Source: an uncultured Bacteriovoracaceae bacterium (GTDB lineage: Bacteria; Bdellovibrionota; UBA2394). From it: 64,000 nt of DNA. Position 1 is the first letter of the stretch. Each line of letters opens with the position of its first letter. The notes below the pieces were generated by a model, which saw only the letters and a list, made by a program, of their open reading frames with translations, searched no databases and had not been told where the DNA came from. A program made the position numbers and the translations under genes. Below, piece after piece: positions 441 through 64,000 of this stretch. Location of the stretch: positions 92,809-156,808 of the forward strand of contig CAZRLF010000004.1 of assembly GCA_964601045.1 (NCBI GenBank), given 5' to 3'.

Positions 441-548
441 GGATGATCTATGGGCATTAGGGGGGTTCAATCGGAGGACAATAATAGTGGGCTTACCCCT
501 ACCAGTCCAGGTATTATGCAAAATTATAGAGCTTAAGAGGACTTACGA

Positions 549-1421: not shown

Positions 1422-1484
1422 GCGGAGGGCTACGCGTTCGTGCGCCCGTATGTGTTGAGCTAAATCCTGGTCTAGTCCAAGCAA

Positions 1485-2069: not shown

Positions 2070-2122
2070 AGTGCAGGTCCTTTTCGTAAACTTTTTGCAA
2101 GGCTAAGAACCCTCAACCCGCC

Positions 2123-2162
2123 AAAAAAAAGAGCCTATTGGTTAGAAATAGGCTCTTTTTTT
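2123..2162 (-). terminator. rho-independent terminator downstream of the 2172..2375 gene (hairpin flanked by A8 and T7, potentially bidirectional)
   Basis: The stem is gagcctat (2131-2138) paired with ataggctc (2148-2155), with a 9-nt loop. It has an A-run on one side and a T-run on the other. Confidence 0.7.
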
Positions 2163-2171
2163 AGTTTAAAT

Positions 2172-2375
2172 CTACTGAGCAGGAGTGTCTTCAGAATCAA
2201 GAGTTTCTGCTGAAGTAAAGTCGAAATCAGCCTCAGCTTCGAGGTTCTTGACGAAGTCTTCACGTTCCTTTCGGGTCAAAAAGCCGTGTTCGACTTTTTT
2301 GTCGAGAAGACGGGTATCAAACTTAGATTCGGTTGCTGTATTTGAAAAAATTTGATTTTCAGCGTTTTTAGACAT
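2172..2375 (-). CDS. small acidic hypothetical protein (67 aa)
   Basis: It is an intact ORF followed by a strong terminator. I recognise no family. Confidence 0.5.
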   Translation of the reverse strand: MSKNAENQIFSNTATESKFDTRLLDKKVEHGFLTRKEREDFVKNLEAEADFDFTSAETLDSEDTPAQ

Positions 2376-2420
2376 GATCTAGCTATTGCCTCGGTTTGGC
2401 CGAGAGGTCAAGATTTGATC

Positions 2421-4154: not shown

Positions 4155-4380
4155 TGAGGATCCAATACTTGAGGATTGAGGAAAAGCCTTAGAATACTCC
4201 ACTTTTCTCTCGATATACGTCGATCAAGGCGGAGCATTCCTTTTAAGTACGACAACGGCAGGCGCCCGCTTTTCTATTGGATGGCTCTTTAATTTAGCCA
4301 AATACGCTCCTTCTGACGGGGTGAAAATTCTATTGTTTGCCCCTTGACCAATAGGGGGCATTTGGACGAATTTCTCATTC

Positions 4381-4548
4381 ATGCCATCACCAACAGGGGT
4401 CACACGTTTAGTAAGAAAAAAGAAGAGAACTCTTCAAGGAAAGCGACGCAAGCGAGAGCTTCGTGCTTCGCCTCGAATCAATTTCTATACGGCATTTCCT
4501 GTTGCTCCTGAAGAGCCTAAAGCCGCAAAAAAAGTAGCGGCCAAGTAA
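4381..4548 (+). CDS. possible small basic protein (55 aa, MPSPTGVTRLVRKKKRTLQGKRRKRELRASPRINFYTAFPVAPEEPKAAKKVAAK)
   Basis: It is the only sizeable ORF in a 430-bp gap and falls below the 60-aa cutoff of the track. There is no clear SD and I recognise no family. Confidence 0.25.
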   Translation: MPSPTGVTRLVRKKKRTLQGKRRKRELRASPRINFYTAFPVAPEEPKAAKKVAAK

Positions 4549-4582
4549 TCACTAGAGTTCATTTTTGATTGATCGATTTTGT

Positions 4583-5944: not shown

Positions 5945-5968
5945 TATTCGTGGAGAGTCGAGTTGAAT

Positions 5969-6682
5969 ATGAAAGCTTTGGTCCTTAAAAAAATAGCCTA
6001 TGGAGAGAAGGATCTAATCGTGCATTTTCTGCTCGAAAGTGGGGAGCAGAAGGCGGGTTTTGCGGCAGGGGCGCGTATTTCTAAAAAGCGGTTTCCGCAT
6101 CAATTTGATATTACTGGTATTTACGATTTAGAATTGGGCGCTCAGAGCGGGCTGCAAAAGTTAAGCTCTATTCATCGCTGTGAACTTATCGAATATAGCT
6201 CTCATTTGTCGGAAGATTTTGAAATCCACTGCCGCTGGGCGATTATTTTGGAGTGGCTTTATTGGAATGCAGAATCGACACAATCTTTTGAATCGGTTTC
6301 TCGTTTGCGAACTGATTTGATGAAACGCGGGCTTCAGCAGACTTATTATTCTTATTTCTTGGAACAAATCGAAGAGCACGGTTTTAAGCCTCATTTAGAT
6401 TCTTGTTTTGTCTGTCAAAAACAGTTGAGTGAGAAGATTTATTTTCAAATTCAAGAGGGAACCTTCTCTCATGACTTCTGTGCTCGTGGAAAAAATGTGA
6501 GTTTTGAAACCTACTCTTTTATAGCGAAGTTTTTTGAGAAAAAAGACATCAAGCTCACTGAAAAAATAGCTTTAGAGCTGGATGTATTACTAATTCCATT
6601 TTTAGAAGCTCAACTTGAGCGACCATTTAAAAGTTATAAAGTTTTTGATGAACTTAAGAATCTTAATTCTTTACGGAATTGA
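5969..6682 (+). CDS. recO: DNA repair protein RecO
   Basis: It has a RecO-type OB-fold N-terminus (ALVLKKIAYGEKDLIV) and a Cys pair, CFVCQ...C. The ATG at 5969 is preferred over the TTG at 5963. Confidence 0.75.
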   Translation: MKALVLKKIAYGEKDLIVHFLLESGEQKAGFAAGARISKKRFPHQFDITGIYDLELGAQSGLQKLSSIHRCELIEYSSHLSEDFEIHCRWAIILEWLYWNAESTQSFESVSRLRTDLMKRGLQQTYYSYFLEQIEEHGFKPHLDSCFVCQKQLSEKIYFQIQEGTFSHDFCARGKNVSFETYSFIAKFFEKKDIKLTEKIALELDVLLIPFLEAQLERPFKSYKVFDELKNLNSLRN

Positions 6683-7567
6683 ACCAAACATTTTTCGTTC
6701 TATGGCAATTAATTGACTGATGCCAAGAGAGTCTGCGTCGTCTTCAATAAAATCCTCTGACCTTAAGAGATTTTGGAGATGGTTAATTCCCGCTTGATAC
6801 TCTGTTTGAGCAATATGGCCAGCCGCTAAATCTTCGAACGTTTTTAAATCTTGGGTAAGAAAAGTTTTGAGCGAGCCAAAGAGATGGCGAGAAAGAGCGA
6901 GTTCCACAACACGGGAATCTAAATTCGGATACTTCAGTAAAAATTGTTCATAAAAATACTGTATGCGACTGAGAATAATAAACGATTGATAGTGAGGCTT
7001 AGTCTCAGAAGGGTAAATGATAGAGAATTGCGAGAGGGGGCTTTCTTTGATCATGTTTGCAGTTTGAAAATCGAGATGATCAAGTTGAGCTTCGGAGTCG
7101 AGAATAACGATTTCAGCTGTTTTGTTCGTAGAGGGCTTTTGCTCAGAAGCCCATTCAAAAATATTATCTCCAAGAGGGCGAAGTTCATAGAGAGAAAGAA
7201 GGCGACTATCAATCATGCCTTTAAGAGTGTCCGGATTGGCGGCATAGATAGAAATTTCTACAGGAATGAGCGTTGAGGCAAATTCATCGTTAAGATGAAA
7301 AGAAGTCTGATGTGCAGATTTTTTTTCACTAAAGATTGGGTGTGGGAGTTTAAAAATTCCTTTTTTCATTCGCGTTCGATAGAGAGGTTTAGGAGACACA
7401 GAGGGAGCTTTTTCAAAAAAAGCTGAGGGATAGGCCGATTTAAATTTTAACTTTAAAAATGCCTCAGAGCATTGCTTCCATTCAGAAACATAATCGGGAG
7501 TTTCTGCCTGAGTAGCATTCACCCAAAATCCTACAACCAAAACAACAACCCCCAAAAATCGAAACAT
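6671..7567 (-). CDS. hypothetical secreted protein
   Basis: There is a signal peptide, MFRFLGVVVLVVGFWVNATQA, if translation starts at 7567. I recognise no family. Confidence 0.5.
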   Translation of the reverse strand: MFRFLGVVVLVVGFWVNATQAETPDYVSEWKQCSEAFLKLKFKSAYPSAFFEKAPSVSPKPLYRTRMKKGIFKLPHPIFSEKKSAHQTSFHLNDEFASTLIPVEISIYAANPDTLKGMIDSRLLSLYELRPLGDNIFEWASEQKPSTNKTAEIVILDSEAQLDHLDFQTANMIKESPLSQFSIIYPSETKPHYQSFIILSRIQYFYEQFLLKYPNLDSRVVELALSRHLFGSLKTFLTQDLKTFEDLAAGHIAQTEYQAGINHLQNLLRSEDFIEDDADSLGISQLIAIERKMFGSIP

Positions 7568-7683
7568 AATGACCCTATTTATTATTGAACTGCCCGCAGC
7601 CTTGCAACCGCTTTTCGATGCCGCGGAGATCCCTCCCCAATCCCAAATTCTTCGCCCCATTTGGGGGGACAGAGACACCATGT

Positions 7684-7694
7684 GGTGACGGAGG
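7684..7694 (+). repeat. GGTGACGGAGG motif copy (exact), intergenic, part of the 16-mer TGTGGTGACGGAGGTA
   Basis: The 16-mer at 7681-7696 is identical to the one at 18911-18926. Confidence 0.9.
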
Positions 7695-7792
7695 TAGGTT
7701 AAAAAAAGCCATAAGTTTTAATGGGTTACAAAAAACATCCCCCGTGCGCAGGTGAATTCTTTGGCATGGAGATTGCATTGATTGAGGTAAGA

Positions 7793-10486
7793 GTGTGGTG
7801 CACGTTTAAAAATTATCTTAGGTCGGTTTTTCTTTTTTTGAGTGCGAATACTATCTTGTTCGCTGATCAAAACGATGAGGTTCGATTTGCGGTTGATGGG
7901 CGGGCAGCAGTCCTTAAAAACAACTCACTCTATTTGGAGTCTCAACGTGAAAAGCCTGTTCTTGAAAAAATTCAAATGATGGCCCCGCCTTTCTTTATGG
8001 CAGGGGGTAAGCTCTATCGAGTTCAAGGATTTAAAGAAGAGCTCAGGCTTTATCCAATTCAAATTAAGGCGCATAAAAGGCTTCTTTCTGACGGCGAAGA
8101 CGGAACCGAGACTAAAATTTTATCGCTTTCACCAGCCGGGCTAGTGATTTACGAATTTAAAGGAGAAACCTATCTCGCCCGACTTCAACTCGATGAGAGA
8201 TCTAGGTTTACAATTATTAACCCTGAACGCGCGGGCGAAAGAATTTCCTCTATTTATGGTCTTGCTGGTGAACATATTAAAATAAGAAAACCCGATTCAG
8301 AGCATTTTATTTACTATCGTGTAACGAACAAACCTGAAGTCGATATTTCGTATGAGATTCAATACAAAGCGGCAAAAGAAAATGTTCCTTATTTTTGGGA
8401 GAGACCCGTTCTAAAAGTTCTGCCTCCGCCTCAGCTTGAATTTAATTTTGATACGGGGCCTCTAAACGACGATGAACTTAAAAAACTAGAGATGGAACTT
8501 TCGACCGATCTCACGCTTTTTATGAAAAAATATTTTGAAAGCAGACCCCTGAAGTTTCGATACTTTCCGAGTAGTTTTTTACAAAACAGTGAGGGCTTTA
8601 TTGCGCGATGGATTAACAACCATTCTACTCAAATGGACATTCTCGATAGTCTAGAGCCTAAACTTCGCAATACAATTTCTTTGCGACCATCCAATCGACT
8701 CTATAGAGGTCAGTTAGCCCGACATCCCCTGAATGTAGCAATTGCGATCGTGCGTGATGAAGAATTGGTTCCTAAGCCAGATTCCAAAAAAATAGTGCAT
8801 CAAGAAGTGGGCAAATGGATTCAGTCCCAGGCAGGAGACGAAAATTTTTGGAATTTATGGCCCGAGGACATTCGAGAGCAAGTGCGAACAGAATTCTTAA
8901 AAAATTCAGATTCTTCAACGCCAGCTTCAAAGGTCGCACTCGTTCAAAACTCTCAAGAGCTGACCAAAGAAGAAAAACGTCACCTTCAAATTAAGCGCAG
9001 GGTTGATCCTCTACGCGTTCTTTCTGATTATCTTTTATCTCTCCCAGTAGATCAACGGCAGCTGCCGAAACAAAGAGATGCGGCAATTGCGGGAATTTTG
9101 GGCAGATGGATTGTCGATAATGGCGGACAACTTAAAGTGCTTTCGGAACTCGATCCTGAACTAAGAAAAACTGTATCGATCGACGCCGCCCATAACGGGT
9201 TTCTTCGCCAGCTAAAATTGGCTCCTTATAATTTTTCTCTTTCATTGATTCGAAAAGATAAGGCGGTACCTACGCTCGATCAGTCCTCGGCTATTTACCA
9301 AGCTGTGGCAACTTGGCTTCAAGAAGCATCTAAGCAATCTGATTTTTTACAAAATTGGCCAGAGGATGTTCGGCCAATTATTAAAAACCATTTCAAGTTA
9401 ACTGAGCATGTTTCGGGTGATTTAATTCCGAAAGGTTCTGAAACAGACCCAGTTGATAAACAAGGTTTTGATTTCTATATTCGATTGAGAACGGATCTGG
9501 TTGGTTTAGTGAAAGAATATCTCGAAGCTCTTCCCCTTGAAAATCGCATTATGCCAAATATAAACGATGGTCCAGAGGGCTACTGGATACAAAAAAAATC
9601 TTCACAGATAAAGATGATTGAGAAGCTGCCCGCTGATTTAGCAAGCACCGTCGCCGTTCGACCTTCAAATAAGTTTTATAAAGTGTATGCACAGAAAATT
9701 CCCAGAAATATTATTTTGTATTTAGTTCGAGTAAGAAAGCAGTTTCCGACAGAGCAGAGCTATCGGCTTCTTTGGGAATGGCTACAAGTCGAATCTAAAA
9801 AGGACGGCTTTTTAGATTCTTGGCCTGAAGACGTTATTCCACAATTTGCGGTTCATTTTAATCTTCGAAAGAAATCTCAGGTTGATAATCGCAGAATTCA
9901 GTCGATTCCTTCTTTGAGCGAAATAGAGAAGTTAAAAATGAAAGATATTTTTACTCGTTGGGAATATACGAGCGATCTAGAGTCTTTTAATAATCTTCTA
10001 AAAAAGCGCCAGGCTGAAGCCGAAGCACCAGTCATTGACAATAAAAATGAAATTTCATCTTGGCGAGATTTTGACGATTTAAGACAGCGATACGAAGTTG
10101 CAACAAAAGATGAGAACCATGAGGAGCATGAGGAAATTGATTTTGATTTGCTTGCGCAGAACTGGGATGCAGCGCTTAAGTTTTGGCAGACGAATCGAAA
10201 GACTGAACTGAGATCTCAACTCGCGGTTGCTTATATAAAAAGAATCGGCGTTATTCCGACAGAGAAGATGTCGCACGATTTACTTGCGGTTGAGATTGCT
10301 GCCTGGATGCGCCACGAAACCAAGGGCGGCTTTCTGCAGACTCATTTTGACGAACTCAAAGAGATTCGAGAAGTTAGAGAATTTATCTATTCAAAAATAA
10401 AGGCACAAAGCAAACGGCGCTGCACGGCTGAACTTTTAGAAATCTCAAAACAGAAGAAAAAGAAGAAAAGGAAAAATGCAGCTTAA
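7793..10486 (+). CDS. large secreted hypothetical protein with three ~155-aa internal repeats and a poly-Lys tail
   Basis: The long ORF shows coding-like periodicity. A GTG at 7793 is preceded by GAGGT and yields the signal peptide KNYLRSVFLFLSANTILFA. An alternative ATG lies at 7766. Confidence 0.6.
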   Translation: MWCTFKNYLRSVFLFLSANTILFADQNDEVRFAVDGRAAVLKNNSLYLESQREKPVLEKIQMMAPPFFMAGGKLYRVQGFKEELRLYPIQIKAHKRLLSDGEDGTETKILSLSPAGLVIYEFKGETYLARLQLDERSRFTIINPERAGERISSIYGLAGEHIKIRKPDSEHFIYYRVTNKPEVDISYEIQYKAAKENVPYFWERPVLKVLPPPQLEFNFDTGPLNDDELKKLEMELSTDLTLFMKKYFESRPLKFRYFPSSFLQNSEGFIARWINNHSTQMDILDSLEPKLRNTISLRPSNRLYRGQLARHPLNVAIAIVRDEELVPKPDSKKIVHQEVGKWIQSQAGDENFWNLWPEDIREQVRTEFLKNSDSSTPASKVALVQNSQELTKEEKRHLQIKRRVDPLRVLSDYLLSLPVDQRQLPKQRDAAIAGILGRWIVDNGGQLKVLSELDPELRKTVSIDAAHNGFLRQLKLAPYNFSLSLIRKDKAVPTLDQSSAIYQAVATWLQEASKQSDFLQNWPEDVRPIIKNHFKLTEHVSGDLIPKGSETDPVDKQGFDFYIRLRTDLVGLVKEYLEALPLENRIMPNINDGPEGYWIQKKSSQIKMIEKLPADLASTVAVRPSNKFYKVYAQKIPRNIILYLVRVRKQFPTEQSYRLLWEWLQVESKKDGFLDSWPEDVIPQFAVHFNLRKKSQVDNRRIQSIPSLSEIEKLKMKDIFTRWEYTSDLESFNNLLKKRQAEAEAPVIDNKNEISSWRDFDDLRQRYEVATKDENHEEHEEIDFDLLAQNWDAALKFWQTNRKTELRSQLAVAYIKRIGVIPTEKMSHDLLAVEIAAWMRHETKGGFLQTHFDELKEIREVREFIYSKIKAQSKRRCTAELLEISKQKKKKKRKNAA

Positions 10487-53649: not shown

Positions 53650-55749
53650 CTATCCCTTGCTCTTGATATCACCTCGAGCAAAAATGGAGGCCACAAAGTT
53701 CAGCACATCTGTTGCACTCTCATCGTTATAACCAAAGTTTTTGATTAAACGCGTTTTGACGACATCAATTTTCTCCTGGGTTTCTTTGTCCACAACATTA
53801 GAGACGAGATTCGTCAATTTGATTGAATCTTTTTGATCCTCAAAAAGTTTGAGCTCTAAAGCTTTATGCAGACGCTCATTGGTTTTGTAATAAAAGGTTT
53901 TTCCTTCTACCGCCAGAGCGCCGATATAGTTCATAATCTCTCTTCTGAAATCATCTTTTCGAGATTCAGGAATTTCAATTTTATCTTCGATAGAGCGCAT
54001 AAGCTTCTCATCGGGTTCTTCATACTGACCTGTAAATTTATTTTTGACTTTTTCGCGCTGAGTATAGGATTTGACCGAATCAATATAATTGGCACAAAGC
54101 TTTTGAATCGAATCTTCATCGGCACAAACCGCTCTTTGAACTTCGTTCTTAACTATATCTTCGTACTCTTGTCGTACAACGGTCAGAAGATCTCGATATT
54201 TCTTTCGAGTTTCTTCATTAGCGATGAGAGAGTGGTGCTTAAGGCCACCCTCAAGCTCGTGAAGAATCATAAAGGGATTAATCGAGGTTGATTCATTCGA
54301 AACTAATGCATTTGAAATCTTATCTTGAACGTATCGAGGTGAAATGCCCTCCATACCTTCGCGAGGCGATTCTTTTCGAAGCTCTTTAATATTGTCTTCG
54401 GTAAATCCTGCCAGAGATTTGCCGTCGTAAAGTTTAAGTTTTTGAAGCAAAGTGAGATTCGCTTTCTTAGGCTCATCAAGTCGAGTGAGCACGGCCCACA
54501 TAGCTGCCATCTCAAGAGTGTGGGGAGCGACGTGCTTTCCGTGAACGCGTTTGACGTTGTAGTCTCGCTTATAGATTTTGGTCTCCTCGGTCCATTTGGT
54601 CACATAGGGAATATCGACTTTCACGGTTCGATCGCGAAGAGCTTCCATGAACTCGTTGTTTTGAAGTTTTCGATATTCAGGTTCGTTCGTATGACCGATG
54701 ATCACCTCATCGATATCGGTGAGAGGAAATTTCTTTGGTTTAATTTTGTGCTCTTGGCTGGCACCTAAGAGGTCGTAAAGGAATGCAACATCAAGTTTGA
54801 GAACCTCTATGAATTCAATCAAACCTCTATTGGCTACTTGAAACTCACCATCGAAATTAAAAGCGCGAGGATCGGATTCAGATCCAAAGATCGCAATTTT
54901 TCGGTAGTTGATATCGCCGGTGAGCTCGGTCGAATCTTGATTCTTTTCATCCTTAGGTTGAAAAGTCGCAATACCTTGGCGCTTCTTTTCAGAAAGTTCG
55001 ATGCGTCTAATTTTTACGCAATCAAGAACTTTGCGATAGTCGCCTTTATAGTAATCGAGCAAAACATTATAAATAAATCGGCAGCAAGGATTAAGCTCGC
55101 CTTCAATTACGATTTGATCTTCAGGACTTCGACCATGGTTAATTGATTGCAAAACTTCTTCGCGCACTTCGGGGGGCAGAAGTTTGAGCGGCTCTTCGTT
55201 CATGGGTGAGGGCAGCTCATCAATTCCTTCTCCAAGCAGAGGTTTGCCTTCAAAGGTGACGGGGTCGGGCAAAATCCAGCTGAAGCTGTAGAGCTTTCCT
55301 TCAGGTTTGCGAGAATATTTCTCGAGCCCTTTTTTTAGGGCTCTTACGATCGTTGATTTAGAACTACCGACTGGCCCGTGAAGAAGTAAAACGCGGTGTT
55401 CAGTTCCATAACCTTTAGCGGCAGCTTTGAGAGCGGCCATAAATTTCATGATGGGTACATCAAGACCAAAGATAGAATCTCTTCCCTGGTCATCCGGATC
55501 ATCAAAAAAATTATAATGAATAATATTTTTCTTCGCGTCCACGAAGTCGCGAGTGCCGTAGCTCATCACCATATCGTAGAGGCGCTGAAAGGCGTTACGT
55601 GCGATATTGGGATCTTCTTCTACAAATTTAAGGTAATCCCAAAACGTGCCTGACCAGCCTAAATTCTGGTACTGATCTACGTATTTAGATTGAGAAAGTA
55701 TGCTTTCAATGCTCGATTTGAGTTTTGAGTCGCCTCTTGTCATTGCCAT
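53650..55749 (-). CDS. prkA: PrkA family serine protein kinase (AAA-type N-domain)
   Basis: It carries [13 protein letters not shown] and is collinear with PrkA/YeaG. The start is probably MAMTRGD (55749); the ORF is open up to 55779. Confidence 0.9.
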
Positions 55750-55831
55750 TCGCCCTTCATGTTTTGATCGTTCTCTCAAGTGTTTCCTTCCCGGACCGGG
55801 AGGAACCTATCAACCGACTTTTCCTCTCTCC

Positions 55832-55860
55832 ATTATCTCCCGAATACAGCTTTTCGTCAA
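55832..55860 (-). promoter_or_regulatory. sigma-70-like promoter TTGACG-17nt-GATAAT for the prkA-yeaH-spoVR operon
   Basis: Read on the minus strand, the -35 element is at 55855-55860 and the -10 element at 55832-55837. A hairpin (TTCCTTCCCGG/CCGGGAGGAA) follows in the leader. Confidence 0.5.
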
Positions 55861-55899
55861 AAAACCTCAAAGATTGAGCGTATTTGCATTAACTCAGTG

Positions 55900-55928
55900 T
55901 TGACACAAGGGATCACGAATCGGAGAAT
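55900..55928 (+). promoter_or_regulatory. sigma-70-like promoter TTGACA-17nt-GAGAAT for hup
   Basis: The -35 element is at 55900-55905 and the -10 element at 55923-55928. The SD GGAGGA is at 55962 and the ATG at 55972. Confidence 0.5.
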
Positions 55929-55971
55929 GAGTCGTTATTTTTAAATTTAACCAACTCATTCGGAGGAAAGC

Positions 55972-56250
55972 ATGACAAAAGCAGATCTCATTTCAGCTAT
56001 TTGCAAGAAATGTCCCAATCTTTCAAAGAAAGCGGTTTCAGAAATCGTTGACACAGCGTTTACGACTTTAGCCGTGGGTCTCAAAAAAGATAAACGATTC
56101 ACATATCCTGGTTTTGGAACCTGGACTGTAAAACAACGCAAGGCTCGCAAAGGGATCAATCCTCAAACAGGCCAAGCCATCAATATCAAGGCTTCAAAAA
56201 CCTGTACCTTTAAGCCCAGTGCCGAATTTAAAAAAGGCTTAAATAAGTAA
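55972..56250 (+). CDS. hup: HU family DNA-binding protein
   Basis: MTKADLISAI...GFGTWTVKQRKARKGINPQTGQAINIKASKTCTFKPS is a classical HU/IHF fold sequence. Confidence 0.9.
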   Translation: MTKADLISAICKKCPNLSKKAVSEIVDTAFTTLAVGLKKDKRFTYPGFGTWTVKQRKARKGINPQTGQAINIKASKTCTFKPSAEFKKGLNK

Positions 56251-56300
56251 TTAGAAGACTTTTGCGGCGCGTTTATTTGTGCCAACAGAGTTTATGAGGG

Positions 56301-56340
56301 AGGCCCTTCCAGAAATGGAAGGGCCTCTGTTCATTTTGGT
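56301..56340 (+). terminator. rho-independent terminator of hup
   Basis: The stem is aggcccttcc (56301-56310) paired with ggaagggcct (56317-56326), followed by a T-rich tail. Confidence 0.6.
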
Positions 56341-56396
56341 GCAAAATTTTGAGGGCGTTGATGAGATAAAATGATTTGGGCGATTTTAGGGGGGAG

Positions 56397-57131
56397 ATGT
56401 TTTCAATTCCTTCCATTTCAAGGCCTCAGTCGCCAACTCAGACTGAAAATCGTCAGATTAAAGTTTTTTCTGACTTTGACGGAACCATCTCCAGTAAAGA
56501 TTCGCTCAAACTTCTCCTCAATCGCTTTGCCGGACCTCAATGGTCCCGGCTCGAGAAAAAGCTTTTAAATGGAGAGCTCTCTGAATCAGTTGTTTTACAG
56601 AAAGCTTTTGATGCCATTGATTTGCCATTTACCCAAGCTATTCAGTTTCTACTTAAAGAAGTTCGAATCGATTCGGGTTTTAAGCCTTTCGTTCAATGGA
56701 CGAAGCGAGAGGGCGTTGATCTCACTATTTTGAGTGGAGGGTTTGAAAACTTTATCCGACCGCTTTTGCTACGCGAGGGCTTGGTCGATATGCCTGTCTT
56801 GGCTAATCAGGTGTCGGTTCGTGGGAAAGTCTGGGAGGTGAGCGCTTGCAAAATTTCTCGACTTTGTGAGCTTTGCAATCATTGTAAGACGGCTTCACTC
56901 GTTCAAGAGATTCAAAAAAATCCTGAAACTTTTATCGTTTATATAGGCGATGGACATACGGATCATTGCCCCGTTCAATTGGCGGATCTTATTTTTGCGA
57001 AGGCAGGACTTCGAGAATATTGCGAAGCTAAACAACTCCCTTATGTTCCGTACGAAACATTTTTTGATATTCGTCAGGTTCTAGAGCCGATTCAAATGAG
57101 AATGGTGAGACGTCTTGAGCAAGTCGCTTAA
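56397..57131 (+). CDS. HAD-IB family phosphatase (MtnX-like)
   Basis: It carries the DFDGTIS nucleophile motif and GDGHTDHCPVQLADLIFAK. Confidence 0.55.
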   Translation: MFSIPSISRPQSPTQTENRQIKVFSDFDGTISSKDSLKLLLNRFAGPQWSRLEKKLLNGELSESVVLQKAFDAIDLPFTQAIQFLLKEVRIDSGFKPFVQWTKREGVDLTILSGGFENFIRPLLLREGLVDMPVLANQVSVRGKVWEVSACKISRLCELCNHCKTASLVQEIQKNPETFIVYIGDGHTDHCPVQLADLIFAKAGLREYCEAKQLPYVPYETFFDIRQVLEPIQMRMVRRLEQVA

Positions 57132-58547
57132 TTAAAAATTATAGTGAAATCCCACTGCGTACGTGGTTGAAGTCGAATTAGATTTAACATCATTCGTAAT
57201 CATTCCGGCACGATTTCCAGCTCCAGAATATGATCGAGAGAAGTCTTCAATTCTGATAGCTGCAAAAATTTCTGAATTTGGCATTTGCAGTTTTTTCATC
57301 GTCCAGCCCACACGGCCGCCATAAGAGAGCAGAAGAGATCCTATTTCAGGTTCTCCAGTTCGAATACTGGTGGTGGGGTCAGCGCTATTTAAAACAGGAC
57401 CTTCGAAGAAATAATTAAATAAAATTATTCCAAGTTCAGGTGTGATCTTAAAGTCATAGGGGACATAAACAGCTGGAAGAAGGTTCAGTTTGGCAAATAT
57501 TTGATAGAGATTCATAAGCACGGGCTGGCCGAGGCGTGAGGGATTCGTTGGACTAATATCTCTCAATTGATTGGTAAGAAATATATTTGTTCCGAACCCG
57601 ACTTGAGCTTCGGGCTCTACACGAATGCCGTATTTAAGAAAAAAAGTTTTTCGCATAAAGCCATAACCTTGGATTTCATGTGCTTGAGCTTGAATATTTG
57701 TTTTTTCAATTTCATCGTTTGAGGGGTCAACAGATTCAGAAAAATAGGTGAATTGATAAGAGAGTTTTCCGCCATAAGTGTATTCAGGAAGTCTCATGCC
57801 GAGTTCATCGCTAATTCCGATTGCCAAGCCCGTAAAATCATAACTCAAGAAGGGGCTATCGTAGTATGATCCGTCAGTTTTTTGAGTGGAGTATTTATCT
57901 TCCCATTGTTGTAAGCCCATTTGTGCATCGAGTTCTTGATAAAAGCCCAGTCTTTCGCGAGCTATGGCAACAGGTTTTTGTTGGATGATTTCAACGGGAG
58001 CTTCACCAGATTTCAATGTAAAACTTCGTTTGTCGCTTTTTGGAATAACGACTTTTTCGGCGAATTTTTGGTCGGGGAATGATTCAACTTTGGTTTCGTA
58101 AGTTTTCTTTTGCTCACTATCTGGCGAATAAGGCTGGTCGAGTGGACCCTTAGAATTTAAAGCGAAGCTGCCGCGACGGAGAGCGCTTAAGGGGATCCAT
58201 CCCGAAACAGGAAAATCTCCCTCTAATTTATATCGAATTTTGGCAAAGGCTTGCTGAAGCTCAAGAATCTCAACAAAATCTCCCTTTTTAAGCTGAACGA
58301 TAAGGGGAGATTCAAGATTAGCCTCTCGGGTCACTTTAGCGGTGGTCGCCACAATAGTCGCCGTTTCCGGTTGCTTAAGAACCTCTGATTTCACTGACTC
58401 TGGCGGTACCACGGGTGACGGAGGCGGAGTTGAAAGCGTCGACGACGGTATGGCGAGAGAATTTGTCTCTTGAGCCATTAGTGAATTAAAAGTTGTAGTC
58501 GAGACGACCCAAAAGAGTATGGGAGAGAATATCTGTATCGAGCGCAT
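57132..58547 (-). CDS. secreted protein: Pro-rich linker, SH3-like domain, C-terminal beta-barrel
   Basis: The signal peptide is MRSIQIFSPILFWVVSTTTFNSLMA if translation starts at 58547. There is an SH3b-like segment, KKGDFVEILELQQAFAKIRY...GWIPLSAL. The protein ends in YAVGFHYNF, with the terminal Phe of an OMP signature. Confidence 0.6.
   Translation of the reverse strand: MRSIQIFSPILFWVVSTTTFNSLMAQETNSLAIPSSTLSTPPPSPVVPPESVKSEVLKQPETATIVATTAKVTREANLESPLIVQLKKGDFVEILELQQAFAKIRYKLEGDFPVSGWIPLSALRRGSFALNSKGPLDQPYSPDSEQKKTYETKVESFPDQKFAEKVVIPKSDKRSFTLKSGEAPVEIIQQKPVAIARERLGFYQELDAQMGLQQWEDKYSTQKTDGSYYDSPFLSYDFTGLAIGISDELGMRLPEYTYGGKLSYQFTYFSESVDPSNDEIEKTNIQAQAHEIQGYGFMRKTFFLKYGIRVEPEAQVGFGTNIFLTNQLRDISPTNPSRLGQPVLMNLYQIFAKLNLLPAVYVPYDFKITPELGIILFNYFFEGPVLNSADPTTSIRTGEPEIGSLLLSYGGRVGWTMKKLQMPNSEIFAAIRIEDFSRSYSGAGNRAGMITNDVKSNSTSTTYAVGFHYNF
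58414..58424 (+). repeat. GGTGACGGAGG motif copy (exact), antisense to the SH3/barrel gene
   Basis: This is an exact 11-mer. The coding strand reads CCT CCG TCA CC (PPSP). Confidence 0.9.
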
Positions 58548-60192
58548 AATCATGCTCATGAGAGAAATCATAACGGAATTGCCCAATGAGATTCGAGAGA
58601 AACCTGTAAGAGGTTCCAGCTCCGGCATAAAAATCGGTCGATTTGTCTCGATAAGACGGGGCTGTTTGGTTCAAAACGGCGGAGTCGATGTCTCTTTTAC
58701 TTGAAACGTACTGAAAATACGCGTCAAAAGCCCATTGAGTGCCCCAATCGTAAGCGACGGTTTGATAAAAGTCGTACCCCTGGGATTTGAATCGCTGTGT
58801 ATAGGTTGCCGTACTTTCCGTTTCGAGTTGACCACCTAGGAGAAAGAGACGAAGGCCGAGCGAAGTGCGATGGGCATCTTTTCGGTTTAGAACGCTAAGG
58901 TTTTTGGAAGGAGTGAAGTCAGCTGCTGGGGTGACCGGTGTATTATCGGCTGTTTTGTTTGAATCTATAGTTCGTCGCTCGTATCGAAAGCGTACAAAAG
59001 GCTGAGCCTCGAGAATGGGGCGATAGGAAAGTCCAACATCAAAACGATAGCGATGCGATTTGTCGAGACTGTCGCTAACGCGGAGGGACTGAGTACTGCC
59101 ATCATCTGTCACCCAACGAACGGCGGTCTGATCGAGAAAACGACTAATTCTAAATTGCGAAAACCCAAAGGAGGCAAACCACTGCGATTGCGGCCTCCAA
59201 AAGGTTTGAAGCGAGAAATGTGAGCTGCTGAATCCGTTATCTTCTTTGGCTGGAGGCCAGGGGAGTTCAAGAGTGGAGAGAGCAAGAAAGCTCACCTGAC
59301 GAACAGGGGTGAAGTGAACTTTATTGTAGAGATAGAATCGACTCATATCGCCTTTATACATTTCAGCAACGAGTGATCCGTCGGCATAGAGTTTGGTATC
59401 ACCTTGAGATGCAAAATTGGGAATGAATCGATAAGTGGGGCCTACAGTGAGGTAGTCTTTTGAAGGGTATTTTGAAATGGGATCGGGAGCGAGTCCTAAA
59501 AAGAAACCCGCAGCCTTAGCGTCGGGAGACGATGAGGGCCCAAAAAACTTTTCGCCATAGACGCCGTCGACGGTAGCGGGGCCTGTCAGGGAGCGACGGC
59601 CAATACTATATAAATAGTCTGCGCCCTTATATTCAAAGTAGGTATCGGAGAACCTTGGTCGATATTTTTGGGAGCCATAGAGGGCCCGATTTTCCATCAA
59701 ATTGGCTGTGAAGTTACCGTTTATTCTAAAATTCAACGGACCACTGACCCCGCGAATATCAGCTCCGATATTGGAGAGAAGAGTGTCGCCACCAAGTTCA
59801 CCTTTAGTGATCGTTTCGCTGCCGGTGGGGTCGGAGGAGTTAATTGTTCTGCCGAGCTCAAGCTCACTGCCATTGCCTTCGCCGGTTCCAATTTTTCGGA
59901 ATTCACAACGCCGAGGTGCCGCGCACTCAGTGGGAATATCGGGGCCGACAGCAACTCCAAGCAAATTATCGCTAGCATCGTAAACAAGTGCGACAGTGGT
60001 CGAATCAAAATCATCAAGTTGATAGAGCGACCAAGTATTCAATCTCCCTTGAAATAACCAAGACCCCGAAGCCGCTGCCGATTCCGTAGCTTCTAGCCCA
60101 CTACCGTTGGTGACAGAGGCCGCAATTGCGGTGACGGAGGCAAGTCGGTTAAATAATTTGAATGCCGATAATTTTAAGGAGTGCTGTTTCAT
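58486..60192 (-). CDS. large outer-membrane beta-barrel protein (about 568 aa)
   Basis: It has a signal peptide, MKQHSLKLSAFKLFNRLASVTAIAA, alternating beta-strand patterns, and a C-terminal LLGRLDYNF. Its start overlaps the cytochrome stop (ATGA). Confidence 0.65.
   Translation of the reverse strand: MKQHSLKLSAFKLFNRLASVTAIAASVTNGSGLEATESAAASGSWLFQGRLNTWSLYQLDDFDSTTVALVYDASDNLLGVAVGPDIPTECAAPRRCEFRKIGTGEGNGSELELGRTINSSDPTGSETITKGELGGDTLLSNIGADIRGVSGPLNFRINGNFTANLMENRALYGSQKYRPRFSDTYFEYKGADYLYSIGRRSLTGPATVDGVYGEKFFGPSSSPDAKAAGFFLGLAPDPISKYPSKDYLTVGPTYRFIPNFASQGDTKLYADGSLVAEMYKGDMSRFYLYNKVHFTPVRQVSFLALSTLELPWPPAKEDNGFSSSHFSLQTFWRPQSQWFASFGFSQFRISRFLDQTAVRWVTDDGSTQSLRVSDSLDKSHRYRFDVGLSYRPILEAQPFVRFRYERRTIDSNKTADNTPVTPAADFTPSKNLSVLNRKDAHRTSLGLRLFLLGGQLETESTATYTQRFKSQGYDFYQTVAYDWGTQWAFDAYFQYVSSKRDIDSAVLNQTAPSYRDKSTDFYAGAGTSYRFLSNLIGQFRYDFSHEHDYALDTDILSHTLLGRLDYNF
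60109..60119 (+). repeat. motif near-copy GGTGACAGAGG (10/11), 21 nt from the copy at 60130
   Basis: It forms a tandem with the exact copy at 60130. Both encode ASVT in the barrel signal peptide. Confidence 0.6.
60130..60140 (+). repeat. GGTGACGGAGG motif copy (exact), antisense to the barrel gene
   Basis: This is an exact 11-mer. The coding strand reads (G)CC TCC GTC ACC (ASVT). Confidence 0.9.
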
Positions 60193-62447
60193 AGACGTCT
60201 CCTTAACTTCCAGGAAATTTGAGAATGGCAATCTGAGCAATCTTTAGAGGATGCAAGATCATGAGGAGATTTGCCGTTTGTGGTCTTTAGATAAGAGTCA
60301 GCATGACAGAAGAAGCAGTCGTTTGGCAGGCCTTCATAGATTTGGTTTTTATGGCAGTCGGAGCAAGCAGCATACCGATGAGCGCCTGTAAGCCTAAAGC
60401 CTGTAAGGTTATGTTTGAATTTAGGTGGCAGCCATGCTGTCTGGGAGTGGCAGTCACCGCAAGTAAGGCCAAGTTTACCGAGGTGTGGATCGTTCTTTTG
60501 ATGGCAAGTGCCGCAAAGAATGCCCATGCCTTGGTTAGTAGCATCCGATCGATGGCATTCGTTACATCCCATTTTGTCGTGGTAGCCTTCGAGTTTAAAG
60601 AATCCTAGATCATGGACCTTAGCCCCCCGTTCAACCGAGAAAGAACTTGTACTATGGCAGGAGTCGCAAGCTTTTCCATATTGTCCAGCGTGAACGTCAG
60701 TGTGGCAGTTAAGACAGTCCGTTGGAGCTGAGTCGAACTGAGATTTTGGTACTTCATATTTTTTAAGCAAATGCTGAGGATGACATTTTTGGCAGGAAAG
60801 TTCGGCGTGACGACCAGTTAATGCCCATCGGCCGATAAGCGAGTGTTCAAATTTTGAGACTGGTTTAAATCCATCTGTGCGATGACAGTCGCCGCATGTA
60901 TCGGGCATGGATTTACCGTGAGGATCCTCATGGCAGCCAGCACAATTGGGATTTGTATTGTTGGCGGGCATATTTTTGAAGCCTTCATTCACATGGCAGG
61001 AAAGACAGGCGACGCTACGATGTTTTCCGGTGAGGTCGAACTGGGTGTTTTTATTGTGGTCAAACTGGATCCAAGAAAATTCCGTCGTTACGTGGCAGAA
61101 TGAGCATGGTTTATCGATCTGTCTTTTATCGTGGGGATTTCGATGGCAATCGCTGCACTCGCCTGTGGAGAGATTTTCAAAAGTTCCACTTAAGTGACAT
61201 TTGTTACAGTCGAGAACTTGATGCTTACCCGAAAGTGGGAATTTTGTTTTGGAGTGCCTTTCGAGGTCGAATGTTGAATTAATGAATTTTTGAGTGAAGC
61301 TGTGACAGCTTTCACATGATTGCTTAGCGAATTGCTCTCCGTGCGGAAATCCGTGGCAGTCAGAGCATTCATCAAATTTATCAGAGGGAACTTTAAATTT
61401 AGCTTTTGGGTCTGTATGGCAAGAGTCGCAAGCCACGGCTTCATGATATCCTTTGAGCGGGAACTTTGTTTTTGAGTGATCAAAACCCTTATCTTTGGAT
61501 GAATGCTTTTTGCCATCCCTAGTGGGAATAATATCTTTCCATTTTCGGTAGACGTTATGGCAAGTCGTACAGTCGTTTCCAAAACTTCCCTTGTGCGGAT
61601 CGGCATGGCAGTCGGTACATTTATCAAAGTTCAGTGGGGCAAATGTGGTAAGTCTTTTCTTTTGGGAATCAAGTTTATGGCATTCTTTGCAACCGACGGG
61701 AACGTGAAGTCCTTCAAGTTTAAATTCTGTTTTGTCATGATTGAAGCTCTGCTTCTTGGCCATTTTTTTCCAGTTTTCAATTGTGGAACTGTGGCACTGA
61801 GTACAATTGAGCCAGTCTTTTTTTGAGAATTTATGTTCGTAATCATTTTTATGGCAGGGATAACAATCGGTTGGGGCTTCCAGATACGTCCGAGAGGATG
61901 TGGTTTCTGATGTTTTTGAGTTTTTACGAAAGGTTGAGTGACAAGATTTACAGTCGGGGCTGGTATGTTTTCCGATGAGTGCGTAGCCGGTTTCGTCGTG
62001 GTTAAAGGTTTTAAGCCAATCTGAGGGAGCAAAAATCGAGTGATCTTTTCCTTTATGGTCTGCGTGGCAGTTTTTGCACTCGGGTTTGTCGCGATGGTAG
62101 CCACGTTGCTTGTCTATGCGAGAAGAAATATCTGTGTGGCAGTCGAGACATTTTTTGTGAACAACGTCTTTACCAGTGCGGCTTTGGTGACACTCAATAC
62201 AACCTTGAACGGTATCAATTTCTTCATGTGCCTTTGTCAGAGGGCCAGGGGATCGGGTTAGGAGTTCTTTCAAAAACTCCTGAGCCTGGAGAGAGGGGGG
62301 GACTATTTGCAGTTTACCTCCGTCACCGAGAAGAACAAAAAATACAGAAAAGGAGAGACAGAAACGGACAAACACAGTCATTCGAGAATTTCGGGACATT
62401 TGTCTAATGCTTTCGCCTTTTGTTGTGATTTTGTACTCCGTCACCAT
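60189..62447 (-). CDS. multihaem c-type cytochrome with 27 CxxCH motifs (nine trihaem c7/c3-like modules)
   Basis: I counted 27 CxxCH by eye. The repeated unit is F.H..T.F.L.G.H....CxxCH ... CxxCH.DPH.G.....CxxCH. The signal peptide is ...MTVFVRFCLSFSVFFVLL...SLQA. Alternative starts are at 62399 and 62381. Confidence 0.85.
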   Translation of the reverse strand: MVTEYKITTKGESIRQMSRNSRMTVFVRFCLSFSVFFVLLGDGGKLQIVPPSLQAQEFLKELLTRSPGPLTKAHEEIDTVQGCIECHQSRTGKDVVHKKCLDCHTDISSRIDKQRGYHRDKPECKNCHADHKGKDHSIFAPSDWLKTFNHDETGYALIGKHTSPDCKSCHSTFRKNSKTSETTSSRTYLEAPTDCYPCHKNDYEHKFSKKDWLNCTQCHSSTIENWKKMAKKQSFNHDKTEFKLEGLHVPVGCKECHKLDSQKKRLTTFAPLNFDKCTDCHADPHKGSFGNDCTTCHNVYRKWKDIIPTRDGKKHSSKDKGFDHSKTKFPLKGYHEAVACDSCHTDPKAKFKVPSDKFDECSDCHGFPHGEQFAKQSCESCHSFTQKFINSTFDLERHSKTKFPLSGKHQVLDCNKCHLSGTFENLSTGECSDCHRNPHDKRQIDKPCSFCHVTTEFSWIQFDHNKNTQFDLTGKHRSVACLSCHVNEGFKNMPANNTNPNCAGCHEDPHGKSMPDTCGDCHRTDGFKPVSKFEHSLIGRWALTGRHAELSCQKCHPQHLLKKYEVPKSQFDSAPTDCLNCHTDVHAGQYGKACDSCHSTSSFSVERGAKVHDLGFFKLEGYHDKMGCNECHRSDATNQGMGILCGTCHQKNDPHLGKLGLTCGDCHSQTAWLPPKFKHNLTGFRLTGAHRYAACSDCHKNQIYEGLPNDCFFCHADSYLKTTNGKSPHDLASSKDCSDCHSQISWKLRRRL
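62317..62327 (-). repeat. GGTGACGGAGG motif copy (exact), sense orientation in the cytochrome gene
   Basis: The plus strand reads CCTCCGTCACC. The mRNA reads GGT GAC GGA GG (GDGG). Confidence 0.9.
62435..62445 (-). repeat. motif near-copy GGTGACGGAGT (10/11), fused to the ATG of the cytochrome ORF
   Basis: The mRNA reads ATG GTG ACG GAG TAC. Confidence 0.6.
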
Positions 62448-62451
62448 TTAA

Positions 62452-63189
62452 CTATTGGTCCATCGAATTGTTAGTGTTAGGAGGCTGACGAGGCGTGGTT
62501 TCTAAATTTATTCCGTTTGCTTCGGCCAAACCTTCAAAATTTGCTCGTAGATTGGGGGCAAGCCTTAAGACTGGTTCACAAAGGGAGTCGCGAAAAGATT
62601 CAAAGCTCTGATCTCGCACACTTTTAAGGATTTTTGACAGAGTTTCCCATTCGGATCGTGTGATTGTATAAGAGAGATACGGAGTTATGAGTTCCTCGCG
62701 AGTCCATCGTACTCGGGGAGTGGGTTCTGTTGGTGACGGAGGCAGAGAATCCGTATTTGCTGCGTTTGCTCGATTTCGAAAAATAGCAGCAAAGAATGTT
62801 GCTCGAACATAGTCGGCTTTTGAACTTCCAAAAACGGTCCCAATTGGCAGTTTCTGAGCTTTTGAACGAAGTCTGGTTCTTCCAAAAATCAAAGAGTGGG
62901 CAATTCTGCAAAAAATTTGCGAGTTTGGTTTGGACCCTTTGGTGACGGAGGAATCTTCGTACCAAAATCGAAGATCGACTCCATTTCTGCCTTCCAAATT
63001 GCTTTGAAAAACTCCTTCAAAACGGTGACGGAGGAATGGCTTTACGGGAGATAAGCCCCAGATTTTTTCGTATTCTGGAAGAGATGCGACGGTTGAGAAT
63101 TTTTGCGAGCTTGTAAGAGAGGGCAATGGACCATCAAGTTGACTGATTAGAAAAAGCGGAACAAACAGAAAAAATGAAAAAGTAGGCAC
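62452..63189 (-). CDS. hypothetical secreted protein, first gene of the cytochrome operon
   Basis: It has a GTG start, and the signal-like N-terminus is MPTFSFFLFVPLFLISQ. I recognise no family. Its stop lies 4 nt before the cytochrome ORF. Confidence 0.5.
   Translation of the reverse strand: MPTFSFFLFVPLFLISQLDGPLPSLTSSQKFSTVASLPEYEKIWGLSPVKPFLRHRFEGVFQSNLEGRNGVDLRFWYEDSSVTKGSKPNSQIFCRIAHSLIFGRTRLRSKAQKLPIGTVFGSSKADYVRATFFAAIFRNRANAANTDSLPPSPTEPTPRVRWTREELITPYLSYTITRSEWETLSKILKSVRDQSFESFRDSLCEPVLRLAPNLRANFEGLAEANGINLETTPRQPPNTNNSMDQ
62732..62742 (+). repeat. GGTGACGGAGG motif copy (exact), antisense to operon gene 1
   Basis: The coding strand frame is CCT CCG TCA CC (PPSP). Confidence 0.9.
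62941..62951 (+). repeat. GGTGACGGAGG motif copy (exact), antisense to operon gene 1
   Basis: The coding strand frame is TCC TCC GTC ACC (SSVT). Confidence 0.9.
63024..63034 (+). repeat. GGTGACGGAGG motif copy (exact), antisense to operon gene 1
   Basis: The coding strand frame is CTC CGT CAC C (LRH). Confidence 0.9.
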
Positions 63190-63241
63190 GCCTACTATCT
63201 TGCATTAAAATTCATGCAAATTCATTAAAAGAGATCTTAGA

Positions 63242-63279
63242 TTCTTAGCCGTCGAGTTTTTTGTAACGACGACTAAGAA
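63242..63279. other. 13-bp imperfect inverted repeat (hairpin) between the small gene at 63318 and the cytochrome operon
   Basis: ttcttagccgtcg (63242-63254) pairs with cgacgactaagaa (63267-63279), with one mismatch and a 12-nt loop. There is no clean U-tract. Confidence 0.4.
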
Positions 63280-63317
63280 TCGCATTCGGACTGAAAATGG
63301 GGATGAATCATCGGTTT

Positions 63318-63533
63318 TTATTCATTGTTATTTCTTCTCAGCCTAAATTCTAACTGGTTGGAATCTAACGTTAACGTTAGCTGGCTTATATTTGCGTCAA
63401 TACGCTCCAGGATTTTGAGCTGGCGCCTAATTCCGGCCTCCAGGGCCCAAATACTTTCAAGTAATCTTAACTCCGCATTTTCAAGTTCTTGCTCAAGATA
63501 CATAATCGATAATTCTTGATTAGAGGTGTTCAT
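63318..63533 (-). CDS. small coiled-coil hypothetical protein (71 aa from ATG 63533)
   Basis: The ORF reads MNTSNQELSIMYLEQELENAELRLLESI... and overlaps the comM stop by 14 nt. I recognise no family. Confidence 0.35.
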   Translation of the reverse strand: MNTSNQELSIMYLEQELENAELRLLESIWALEAGIRRQLKILERIDANISQLTLTLDSNQLEFRLRRNNNE

Positions 63534-64000
63534 GGGGTCTCTCCATTCGCATAATAAACTCATTAAAGTTGTTTTGATCGCGTTGTGTTGGCGCCGAGCA
63601 TTCATAAAATTTGCACCAGCTAATAAAGCTTTCGAGTTGATTTCTTTGACGCCGTGGATTTTGTTTTGAGTTTAGTCGAATGTTTTCCAAGTTTATGGCT
63701 TTTAAATTTCGCGCATCAATAATTCTCTTCTTAAGAGTTTTAATTTCAAATTCTCTCGACTTAGAGAAATCATGAAAATCCCAAAATACTTTGAAGTGAA
63801 AGCGATCTTGAAGCGGCCCTGAGATCCGAGCTTTGTAAGCTTGGTATTCAATCGTTCGACAAGTACAGACTGTGGTTGAGCAATGAAATCCGCATTTGCA
63901 TGGATTCATCGCGGCGAGTAGCTGAATGTCTGCGGACATCTGTGCTGTTGCTCCTGATCGAGCAATGCTAACGCGTTTCGTTTCTAAGGGTTCTCGAAGA
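63520..64000 (-). CDS. comM: Mg-chelatase-like ATPase ComM/YifB, C-terminal part (the gene runs off the right edge)
   Basis: The frame is open to the window edge. LREPLETKRVSIARSGATAQMSADIQLLAAMNPCKCGF...YKARISGPLQDRF matches the ComM/YifB core. Confidence 0.75.
   Translation of the reverse strand, partial: LREPLETKRVSIARSGATAQMSADIQLLAAMNPCKCGFHCSTTVCTCRTIEYQAYKARISGPLQDRFHFKVFWDFHDFSKSREFEIKTLKKRIIDARNLKAINLENIRLNSKQNPRRQRNQLESFISWCKFYECSAPTQRDQNNFNEFIMRMERPHEHL

Follow-up and report, generated by a model that had tools for sequence, protein, structure and literature searches.

Four coupled genes on the minus strand

The 64,000-nt stretch of DNA analysed here (the window; contig CAZRLF010000004.1, positions 92,809–156,808) comes from an organism that is Bacteriovoracaceae-like, as shown by the titles of related metagenome-assembled genomes (MAGs) in GTDB. 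It carries an operon of four genes, here called A to D, in which the gene for a 27-haem cytochrome c is followed directly by that for a predicted outer-membrane beta-barrel. All four are open reading frames (ORFs) on the minus strand. Gene A (62452–63189, GTG start) encodes a secreted protein of 245 aa, and gene B (60189–62447) the cytochrome, a periplasmic-type protein of 752 aa. Gene C (58486–60192) encodes an outer-membrane protein of 568 aa, counted from an ATG that overlaps the stop codon of B, and gene D (57132–58547) a protein of 471 aa with an SH3b-like domain and a probable barrel.

The junctions between the genes were tight. A 4-nt spacer (62448–62451, minus strand) separates the stop codon of A from the ATG of B. 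B and C share the stop/start overlap ATGA (60189–60192, minus strand; TCAT on the plus strand), an arrangement of translational coupling. C and D overlap by 62 nt (58486–58547, minus strand), D starting with the ATG at 58547 and C ending with the stop codon at 58486. This overlap is dual-coding: one reading frame carries the last codons of C, including its beta-signal, and another frame of the same DNA encodes the D signal peptide. An earlier sequence-only reading had described four co-directional genes with a 4-nt gap, an ATGA and a 62-nt overlap, and the ORFs and junctions were found as described.

Conservation within the clade

Scanning of GTDB genomes located C in seven MAGs, mostly labelled Bacteriovoracaceae or Bdellovibrionota, with one labelled Deltaproteobacteria and one Bradymonadales. 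The operon was syntenic across about ten Bacteriovoracaceae/Bdellovibrionota MAGs, and the order A–B–C–D was kept at every clade locus with enough DNA. It was flanked by a ComM-type gene and a small ORF on one side, and by HAD phosphatase, HU and prkA-DUF444-spoVR genes on the other. Identity to the window proteins was 57–62% for B, 37–55% for C, 31–48% for A and 22–43% for D. All B orthologs (30/30) had exactly 27 CxxCH motifs. The B/C ATGA junction was present in 9/9 clade loci, and a C/D overlap of 53–74 nt, with the D signal peptide encoded within it, in 8/10. The four genes had been read as an operon with coupled junctions, and the synteny and ATGA junctions of the clade show them to be a conserved, translationally coupled unit.

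The remaining window was of a housekeeping character, with genes for SMC, FtsY, SecA, RpoN, glycolysis, a tRNA synthetase and proteases. As the operon was syntenic within the clade and its surroundings were housekeeping, it is an old core trait of the clade and not an island. B was the sole CxxCH-bearing ORF of the 64-kb window. The genome had also been taken for that of an aerobic, Bdellovibrio-like bacterium; MAG relatives uphold the affiliation, as Bacteriovoracaceae-like, and leave "aerobic" unsupported, no respiratory genes being present in the window.

Gene B encodes a c7-polymer cytochrome

B contained exactly 27 CxxCH motifs, spaced short-short-long nine times to give nine c7-type triads, and no CxnCH variants. 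There were 58 histidines and only eight methionines in the whole protein, which has about 26 residues per haem. In a Pfam search, Cytochrome_C7 matched B at 3.7e-30 in eight stretches, and Cytochrom_c3_2 and Cytochrom_CIII also matched. The signal peptide was clear, with a single hydrophobic segment at residues 21–43 and an LQA/QE cleavage site, and there was no lipobox. Having a Sec signal and no lipid anchor, B is predicted to be soluble and of the periplasmic type. The exact motif count and the Cytochrome_C7 match confirm the earlier description of B as a periplasmic-type c7 polymer with 27 CxxCH motifs.

Against the MtrA/DmsE model TIGR03508, B scored 32.7 bits (cut-off 192.2), and scores with the HmcA and Ext models were likewise far below cut-off. 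A family profile of 21 B-family members had as its top Protein Data Bank (PDB) match 3OV0, which is Geobacter GSU1996 (E 2.7e-8). A phmmer search of the PDB with B alone gave no match, and GSU1996 was reached by the family profile only.

Haem ligation was considered from the same 21-member alignment, in which 25 non-motif histidines were invariant and one was near-invariant, for 27 haems. This suggests that nearly all haems of B are bis-His ligated. Near-complete bis-His ligation would fit low-potential electron transfer. In GSU1996, one haem in each c7-type domain is His-Met ligated; for B, the conserved histidines suggest a second His at nearly every haem. By its sequence features, B is a c7-polymer cytochrome, kin of the Geobacter GSU1996/GSU2210 type.

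The Geobacter c7 polymers are like B in having tandem c7-type trihaem domains, a haem number that is a multiple of three and a periplasmic-type signal peptide. GSU1996 and GSU0592 carry 12 haems, and GSU2210 carries 27, equal to B (PMC10138318). However, B is distant from them in sequence and is encoded together with a dedicated, coupled outer-membrane barrel.

The cytochrome family is probably under-annotated in public data. In the closest relative (L001, a JGI copy), the gene caller missed a 762-aa cytochrome at 5900–8000 and called five small antisense ORFs; the cytochrome gene is present in the Logan copy of the same DNA (L002).

Gene C encodes a barrel of a new sequence family

C has a signal peptide and the C-terminus LDYNF. 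An AlphaFold2 (AF2) model built from a nine-sequence alignment (predicted local distance difference test score, pLDDT, 66.6; predicted template-modelling score, pTM, 0.54) contained 21 long antiparallel strands in residues 143–566, mostly at high confidence. This region (58489–59766, minus strand) is modelled as a beta-barrel of about 21–22 strands. The roughly 100 residues at the N-terminus, which include a conserved Cys pair, were poorly modelled. On this model, C is a large outer-membrane beta-barrel.

Foldseek comparison of the model with the PDB returned outer-membrane barrels only, at template-modelling (TM) scores of at most 0.39. Among them were porins, OprC, the ushers FimD and PapC, MtrB and LptD, with TM 0.27–0.30 for MtrB (6r2q_B). 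No Pfam or NCBIfam family matched C or 15 members of the C superfamily, and the C profile had no relative among PDB sequences. Since there were no sequence relatives and the Foldseek matches were barrels at low TM, C represents a new sequence family of barrels and cannot be assigned to any particular structural group; it is neither an ordinary porin nor an usher. The family was also rare, with eight relatives of C among 5.8 billion clustered proteins and ten at E<1e-10 among 1.84 billion representatives. All of the approximately ten close members among these representatives lay within an A-B-C-D operon.

A tight, translationally coupled pairing of cytochrome and barrel would also be expected if B were exported to the surface as an extracellular nanowire, C being a dedicated secretion or anchoring pore of the usher or two-partner-secretion kind. 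The ushers FimD and PapC were matched by C at similarly low TM, and an extracellular location has been predicted for some 27-haem wires of Geobacter (bioRxiv 10.1101/2024.01.05.574438). However, C had no POTRA, two-partner-secretion or usher domains and no Pfam match, and B had neither a lipobox nor a recognisable secretion domain. A barrel of about 22 strands would moreover have difficulty in passing folded B with its 27 covalent haems. Export of B as a nanowire thus seems unlikely.

The cytochrome-barrel pairing outside the clade

Searches with B identified more than 5400 c7-polymer cytochromes in all. About 30 were orthologs at 50% identity or more, below which identity fell abruptly to 39% or less. 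Within the best 120 matches, 39 had exactly 27 haems in 650–770 aa, and the haem count was a multiple of three in 82. These 39 cytochromes spanned at least two diverged clades.

Six outgroup cytochromes (L013–L018) were examined with their surroundings. Three of them (L013, L014 and L015) have 27 haems and 37–39% identity to B, and L016, from a Myxococcota MAG, has 30; their neighbourhoods were quite different. A C homolog followed directly after the cytochrome in 4/6 loci (L013–L016). The barrels at these four loci have 448–482 aa, begin with a signal peptide and end in Phe, and a 4-nt ATGA overlap between cytochrome and barrel was found in L013, L014 and L016. Homology was established using hhalign, both for the C profile against the alignment of the L013–L015 barrels (97.7%, E 1.9e-12, 382 columns) and for the L016 barrel against that alignment (98.7%, E 2.5e-16). 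An outer-membrane-like protein downstream of the 45-haem cytochrome of L018 was considered as a C homolog and rejected, as no homology was detectable.

More distant relatives of C gave a similar picture. Three such proteins from a profile search (P0026, P0023 and P0027) were each encoded immediately after a c7-type cytochrome; these cytochromes have 27, at least 45 and 11 CxxCH motifs, in that order, and the genomes 34, 51 and 66% GC. Metagenomes scanned with the outgroup 27-haem alignment yielded 80 diverse c7-polymer loci, of which 32 had room to judge; a C-superfamily barrel stood right after the last cytochrome gene in 13 of the 32. A metagenome scan with alignment A3 gave no confirmed locus. 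A two-cytochrome layout, of 20–23 haems, then 7–36 haems, then a C-type barrel, was frequent among the metagenome loci (L023, L031, L033, L040, L045, L046, L058, L063, L064, L070, L088 and L094). This layout is closer to the classical arrangement of a periplasmic plus a surface cytochrome.

As identified by sequence homology, relatives of C are found almost only beside c7-type multihaem cytochromes, outside the clade as well as within it. The sequence-only reading had named, as an outcome that would speak against a conduit, ordinary porins or ushers with no cytochrome beside them in other genomes; the pairing was instead found to recur. Its recurrence outside the clade, in different neighbourhoods, supports a module of the porin-cytochrome type. 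The barrel signals of C and D are only generic, as they would be if an ordinary porin and an OmpA-like protein lay by chance beside an unrelated cytochrome. Such a coincidence is contradicted by the rarity of the C family and its confinement to the operon, by the coupled junctions and by the recurrence of the pairing across lineages, and is highly improbable.

In L013–L016 and L019, a gene just upstream encodes a protein of about 660 aa with a cyclic nucleotide monophosphate (cNMP)-binding domain, two CxxCxxC clusters (4Fe-4S) and 2–4 hydrophobic segments. From these features, it is a candidate inner-membrane partner or regulator. A and D were absent from the outgroup loci, which indicates that the conserved core consists of cytochrome and barrel, and that A and D are Bacteriovoracaceae additions. 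The four genes together had been put forward as a candidate porin-cytochrome conduit; the B-C pairing favours that proposal, and A and D, being lineage-specific, fall outside the widespread core.

Lineage-specific accessories suggest adaptation, and could point to a non-respiratory redox role in the envelope, such as reductive iron or metal acquisition, detoxification, redox sensing or, in a predator, electron exchange with prey or bdelloplast. It would fit such a role that the locus lies among housekeeping genes and is stably kept as a core trait in a lineage for which metal respiration is not known. The sequence points to no particular substrate, however, and the same cassette occurs with the membrane Fe-S protein in many non-predatory lineages. 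We consider a role of this kind quite improbable.

Accessory proteins D and A

The D protein opens with a signal peptide. A Pro/Ser-rich linker leads to a domain of about 60 residues, and another linker joins this domain to the C-terminal part of about 270 residues. The SH3b-like domain (about residues 64–122; 58182–58358, minus strand) was delimited from the alignment, the SH3_3 matches and the PDB matches. Pfam SH3_3 matched 9/10 D-family members, at best 4.3e-5, with the window protein alone giving a weak match below threshold (E 0.06). The D profile also matched the solved bacterial SH3 domains 2kyb and 2kt8 (E 0.0025–0.007), in agreement with the SH3-like domain that had been read from the sequence.

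The C-terminal part of D (about residues 200–471; 57135–57950, minus strand) is a probable outer-membrane barrel, judging from its 10–12 amphipathic beta segments and an invariant final Phe. OMP_b-brl matched one D-family member weakly (0.004). An AF2 model of D from two sequences was unusable (pLDDT 30), and the barrel is for that reason inferred rather than shown. Two barrels had been claimed for the operon: AF2 and Foldseek support that of C, and that of D was not confirmed structurally. The aromatic C-termini on which the claim drew are present in both, as LDYNF in C and FHYNF in D. The idea that C and D might be paralogous barrels was rejected, as hhalign found no homology between them; D likewise had no homology to the outgroup barrels.

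Gene A encodes about 190 mature residues with two invariant Cys and the motifs RHRFE, WYEDSSVT and FCRIAH. Its orthologs occupy the same position in nine loci (31–48% identity), and these shared Cys and motifs show that A is a real gene. No relatives of A were found in Pfam, NCBIfam or the PDB, also when a profile was used.

Signal peptides had been assigned to all four products; that of B is clear, and C has one too. The signal peptide of D exists only with the translation start inside the C/D overlap, where the orthologs keep theirs. A as annotated has a hydrophobic stretch with no charged n-region, although its orthologs have ordinary signal peptides. The annotated GTG start of A lies inside a hairpin with a T-run (63196–63181, in region 63170–63205), and an ATG in another frame at 63205 reads MQDSRRAYFFIFS... 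until a stop. An assembly homopolymer indel could be present at the A N-terminus. No transmembrane helices beyond the signal peptide were found in any of A to D.

Comparison with known electron-transfer systems

Porin-cytochrome modules electrically link the metabolism of Gram-negative bacteria to minerals, electrodes and other cells. To our knowledge, few families have been characterised: Mtr, Geobacter Pcc/Ext, the candidates PCC3/4, Cyc2 and Uet. Operationally, a porin-cytochrome cluster is recognised by adjacent genes for a porin and a periplasmic multihaem cytochrome (PMC5566968). B and C are such a pair, adjacent and with an ATGA overlap.

The Mtr/Pio/Mto systems resemble the locus in that a gene for a periplasmic multihaem cytochrome adjoins one for a large barrel, and MtrB was among the Foldseek matches of C. 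The working principle is likely, by analogy, to be the same as that of MtrAB, namely a barrel-sheathed cytochrome. The components differ, however. MtrA/DmsE is a decahaem protein whereas B has 27 haems, the MtrB/PioB barrels have 26–28 strands whereas C has about 21–22 and no MtrB_PioB match, and the MtrC-type surface cytochrome has no counterpart at the locus.

Porin-like proteins of the Geobacter Pcc systems have 18–22 predicted strands (PMC4245776), a range that includes C, though the likeness is one of size only; a periplasmic multihaem partner is present in both. The Pcc periplasmic cytochromes have 5–14 haems, in contrast to the single 27-haem protein B. Pcc (OmbB-OmaB-OmcB) also includes an outer-membrane lipoprotein cytochrome, which this locus lacks, and the order here is cytochrome then barrel.

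PCC3 of iron oxidisers (He et al. 2017; Gallionellaceae pangenome) combines a porin with a periplasmic cytochrome of 21–27 haems that is proposed to span the periplasm. The locus is similar in its porin plus long periplasmic cytochrome, and the 27 haems of B are within the PCC3 range. PCC3 porins have up to about 42 predicted strands. [quoted passage not shown]

The module is therefore not Mtr, Geobacter Pcc or PCC3. A mismatch with the Mtr and Pcc sets had already been noted from the sequence, and stands, there being no MtrA/DmsE, no MtrB_PioB and no lipoprotein cytochrome. In the literature, we found no paper linking c7-polymer cytochromes to a dedicated barrel, and nothing relevant on multihaem cytochromes or extracellular electron transfer in Bacteriovoracaceae/Bdellovibrionota. 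Bacteriovoracaceae are known as predators and not as electroactive bacteria. What is new is a c7-polymer cytochrome paired with a barrel of a family for which Pfam and NCBIfam have no model, here accompanied by two lineage-specific accessories and in an unexpected host group.

A proposed porin-cytochrome-type conduit across the envelope

We propose that B and C form an electron conduit of the porin-cytochrome type across the cell envelope, and put the probability of this at roughly 0.55. B would be a Sec-exported, peptide-minimised haem wire of c7-type trihaem domains, and C would be made in fixed proportion to it through the ATGA-coupled junction. One end of the elongated B may sit in or at the C barrel, as MtrA does inside MtrB, so as to pass electrons between periplasm and surface. 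The other end of the 27-haem protein may extend as far as the inner membrane; by a published estimate, bridging a periplasm about 200 Å wide takes about 27 haems (PMC7096707). The SH3b domain of D, which would be periplasmic, probably tethers the assembly to peptidoglycan or a partner. A, with its conserved Cys pair, is a possible assembly factor, or a redox partner for electron delivery. From the sequences, we infer the B-C complex and its topology, which way and with which partners electrons are exchanged, and what A and D do.

Several observations weigh against this proposal. Binding of B to C and access of B to the surface are predictions from the genes. The 64-kb window contained no extracellular cytochrome, inner-membrane quinol dehydrogenase or other CxxCH protein, and the membrane protein with a cNMP-binding domain and two [4Fe-4S] clusters was found neither in the window nor at the clade loci. 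Within the clade, the co-occurrence of B and C is a single syntenic inheritance and hence counts as one observation. Outside it, 19 of the 32 assessable metagenome loci, and the Nitrospira locus L017, have a c7-polymer cytochrome and no such barrel. The confidence of the C model is moderate (pLDDT 66.6). Lastly, the Geobacter c7 polymers are regarded as periplasmic (PMC10138318).

The periplasmic location described for the GSU1996-type members, and the lack of a surface cytochrome in the operon, would suit B as an electron store or relay in the periplasm, a "capacitor" from which no electrons cross the outer membrane. C would then dock B or serve an unrelated transport. Left unexplained by such a store are the position of the barrel family directly after c7-type cytochromes in distant genomes, and the conserved ATGA coupling. 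We give it little credence, about as little as the exported nanowire.

The conduit proposal can be extended, tentatively and with more doubt than expectation, to a widespread class that has so far gone unrecognised. In it, a 27-haem ruler would span the periplasm and plug into its own barrel family, fed in most lineages by the cNMP Fe-S protein, with the Bacteriovoracaceae form remodelled. The pairing spans Bacteriovoracaceae, a Myxococcota MAG and many unclassified metagenome contigs. If the class is real, the Bacteriovoracaceae would have added a second barrel, anchored by its SH3b domain, together with a new secreted protein, and predatory bacteria would gain extracellular or prey-directed electron transfer. 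As the 27 haems equal the published estimate for bridging the periplasm, the idea of a single-protein periplasmic bridge is directly testable. With the module as a stable core trait of a predator lineage, extracellular electron transfer would have to be expected in a wider range of organisms.

Upstream region and downstream neighbour

The non-coding stretch 5′ of A (63190–63374, minus strand) included a weak sigma-70-like match (63374–63347) and, at its edge, the hairpin with T-run (63196–63181). Promoter and terminator matches upstream of A were no more numerous than in shuffled sequence, and no promoter was established. Since the scan did no better than with shuffled sequence, co-transcription of A to D is taken from gene spacing alone. 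An Rfam search of 55000–64000 returned nothing. On the other side, a HAD-phosphatase gene (plus strand, ending at 57131) converges on D (minus strand, stop codon 57132–57134) with zero spacer; because the two genes abut, there is no room for a terminator between them.

An over-represented DNA word

The word GGTGACGGAGG occurred 14 times in the window at one mismatch or fewer, against 0.46 expected. Nine copies were exact, of which six lay within the operon. The array extends over 58414–63034 on both strands. Five of the exact copies lie antisense to the genes on the plus strand (58414, 60130, 62732, 62941 and 63024) and the sixth lies on the minus strand (62317); one-mismatch copies are at 60109 (plus) and at 62435 (minus), the latter over the ATG of B. 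The three exact copies outside the operon, at 2543, 7684 and 18914, are at the 5′ ends or upstream of genes for an acyl-CoA dehydrogenase, an unknown 921-aa protein and a SpoU methylase. In 6671–10486, two ORFs with no Pfam match, of 336 aa (minus) and 921 aa (plus), diverge from the intergenic copy at 7684, which is 2 nt upstream of the ATG of the 336-aa gene.

A protein repeat was rejected as the source of the word, since copies occur in three frames, on both strands and between genes. In gene A, it encodes LRH, SSVT and PPSP in three frames. Specificity for the operon was rejected as well, given the three exact copies elsewhere in the window and the copies upstream of ComM in L002 and L007. 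The array had been read as marking the operon for special control. It is real, but its copies elsewhere, on both strands, in three frames and between genes, do not establish such control, and as an operon-specific mark it failed, a one-base variant being spread over a related genome.

In L002, the closest relative, the 10-mer CTCCGTCACC, also present in the window, occurred seven times in 17.6 kb (993–5869). In L007, the one-base variant CTCCGTCCCC occurred 18 times in 17.5 kb (488–9329). Copies in both were on both strands, in coding and intergenic DNA. In the window, L002 and L007 alike, the word clustered in A, in the 5′ part of B and in the unknown genes upstream of ComM. Neither the CTCCGTCACC nor the CTCCGTCCCC form occurred in more distant clade members. 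These data show a DNA word that is particular to the lineage and has dialects differing by one base.

The layout is common to the window and L002, with two copies in A and two complementary copies in the 5′ end of B, one of the latter at or near the B start codon. RNAfold paired the copies in a nested manner, but complementarity alone yields such pairing, and long-range mRNA pairing as a general rule is disfavoured by an excess of sense copies in L007. The word has several readings: it may be a candidate operator array of a co-evolving factor, an uptake-signal-like word, or an mRNA pairing element that couples translation of B to A.

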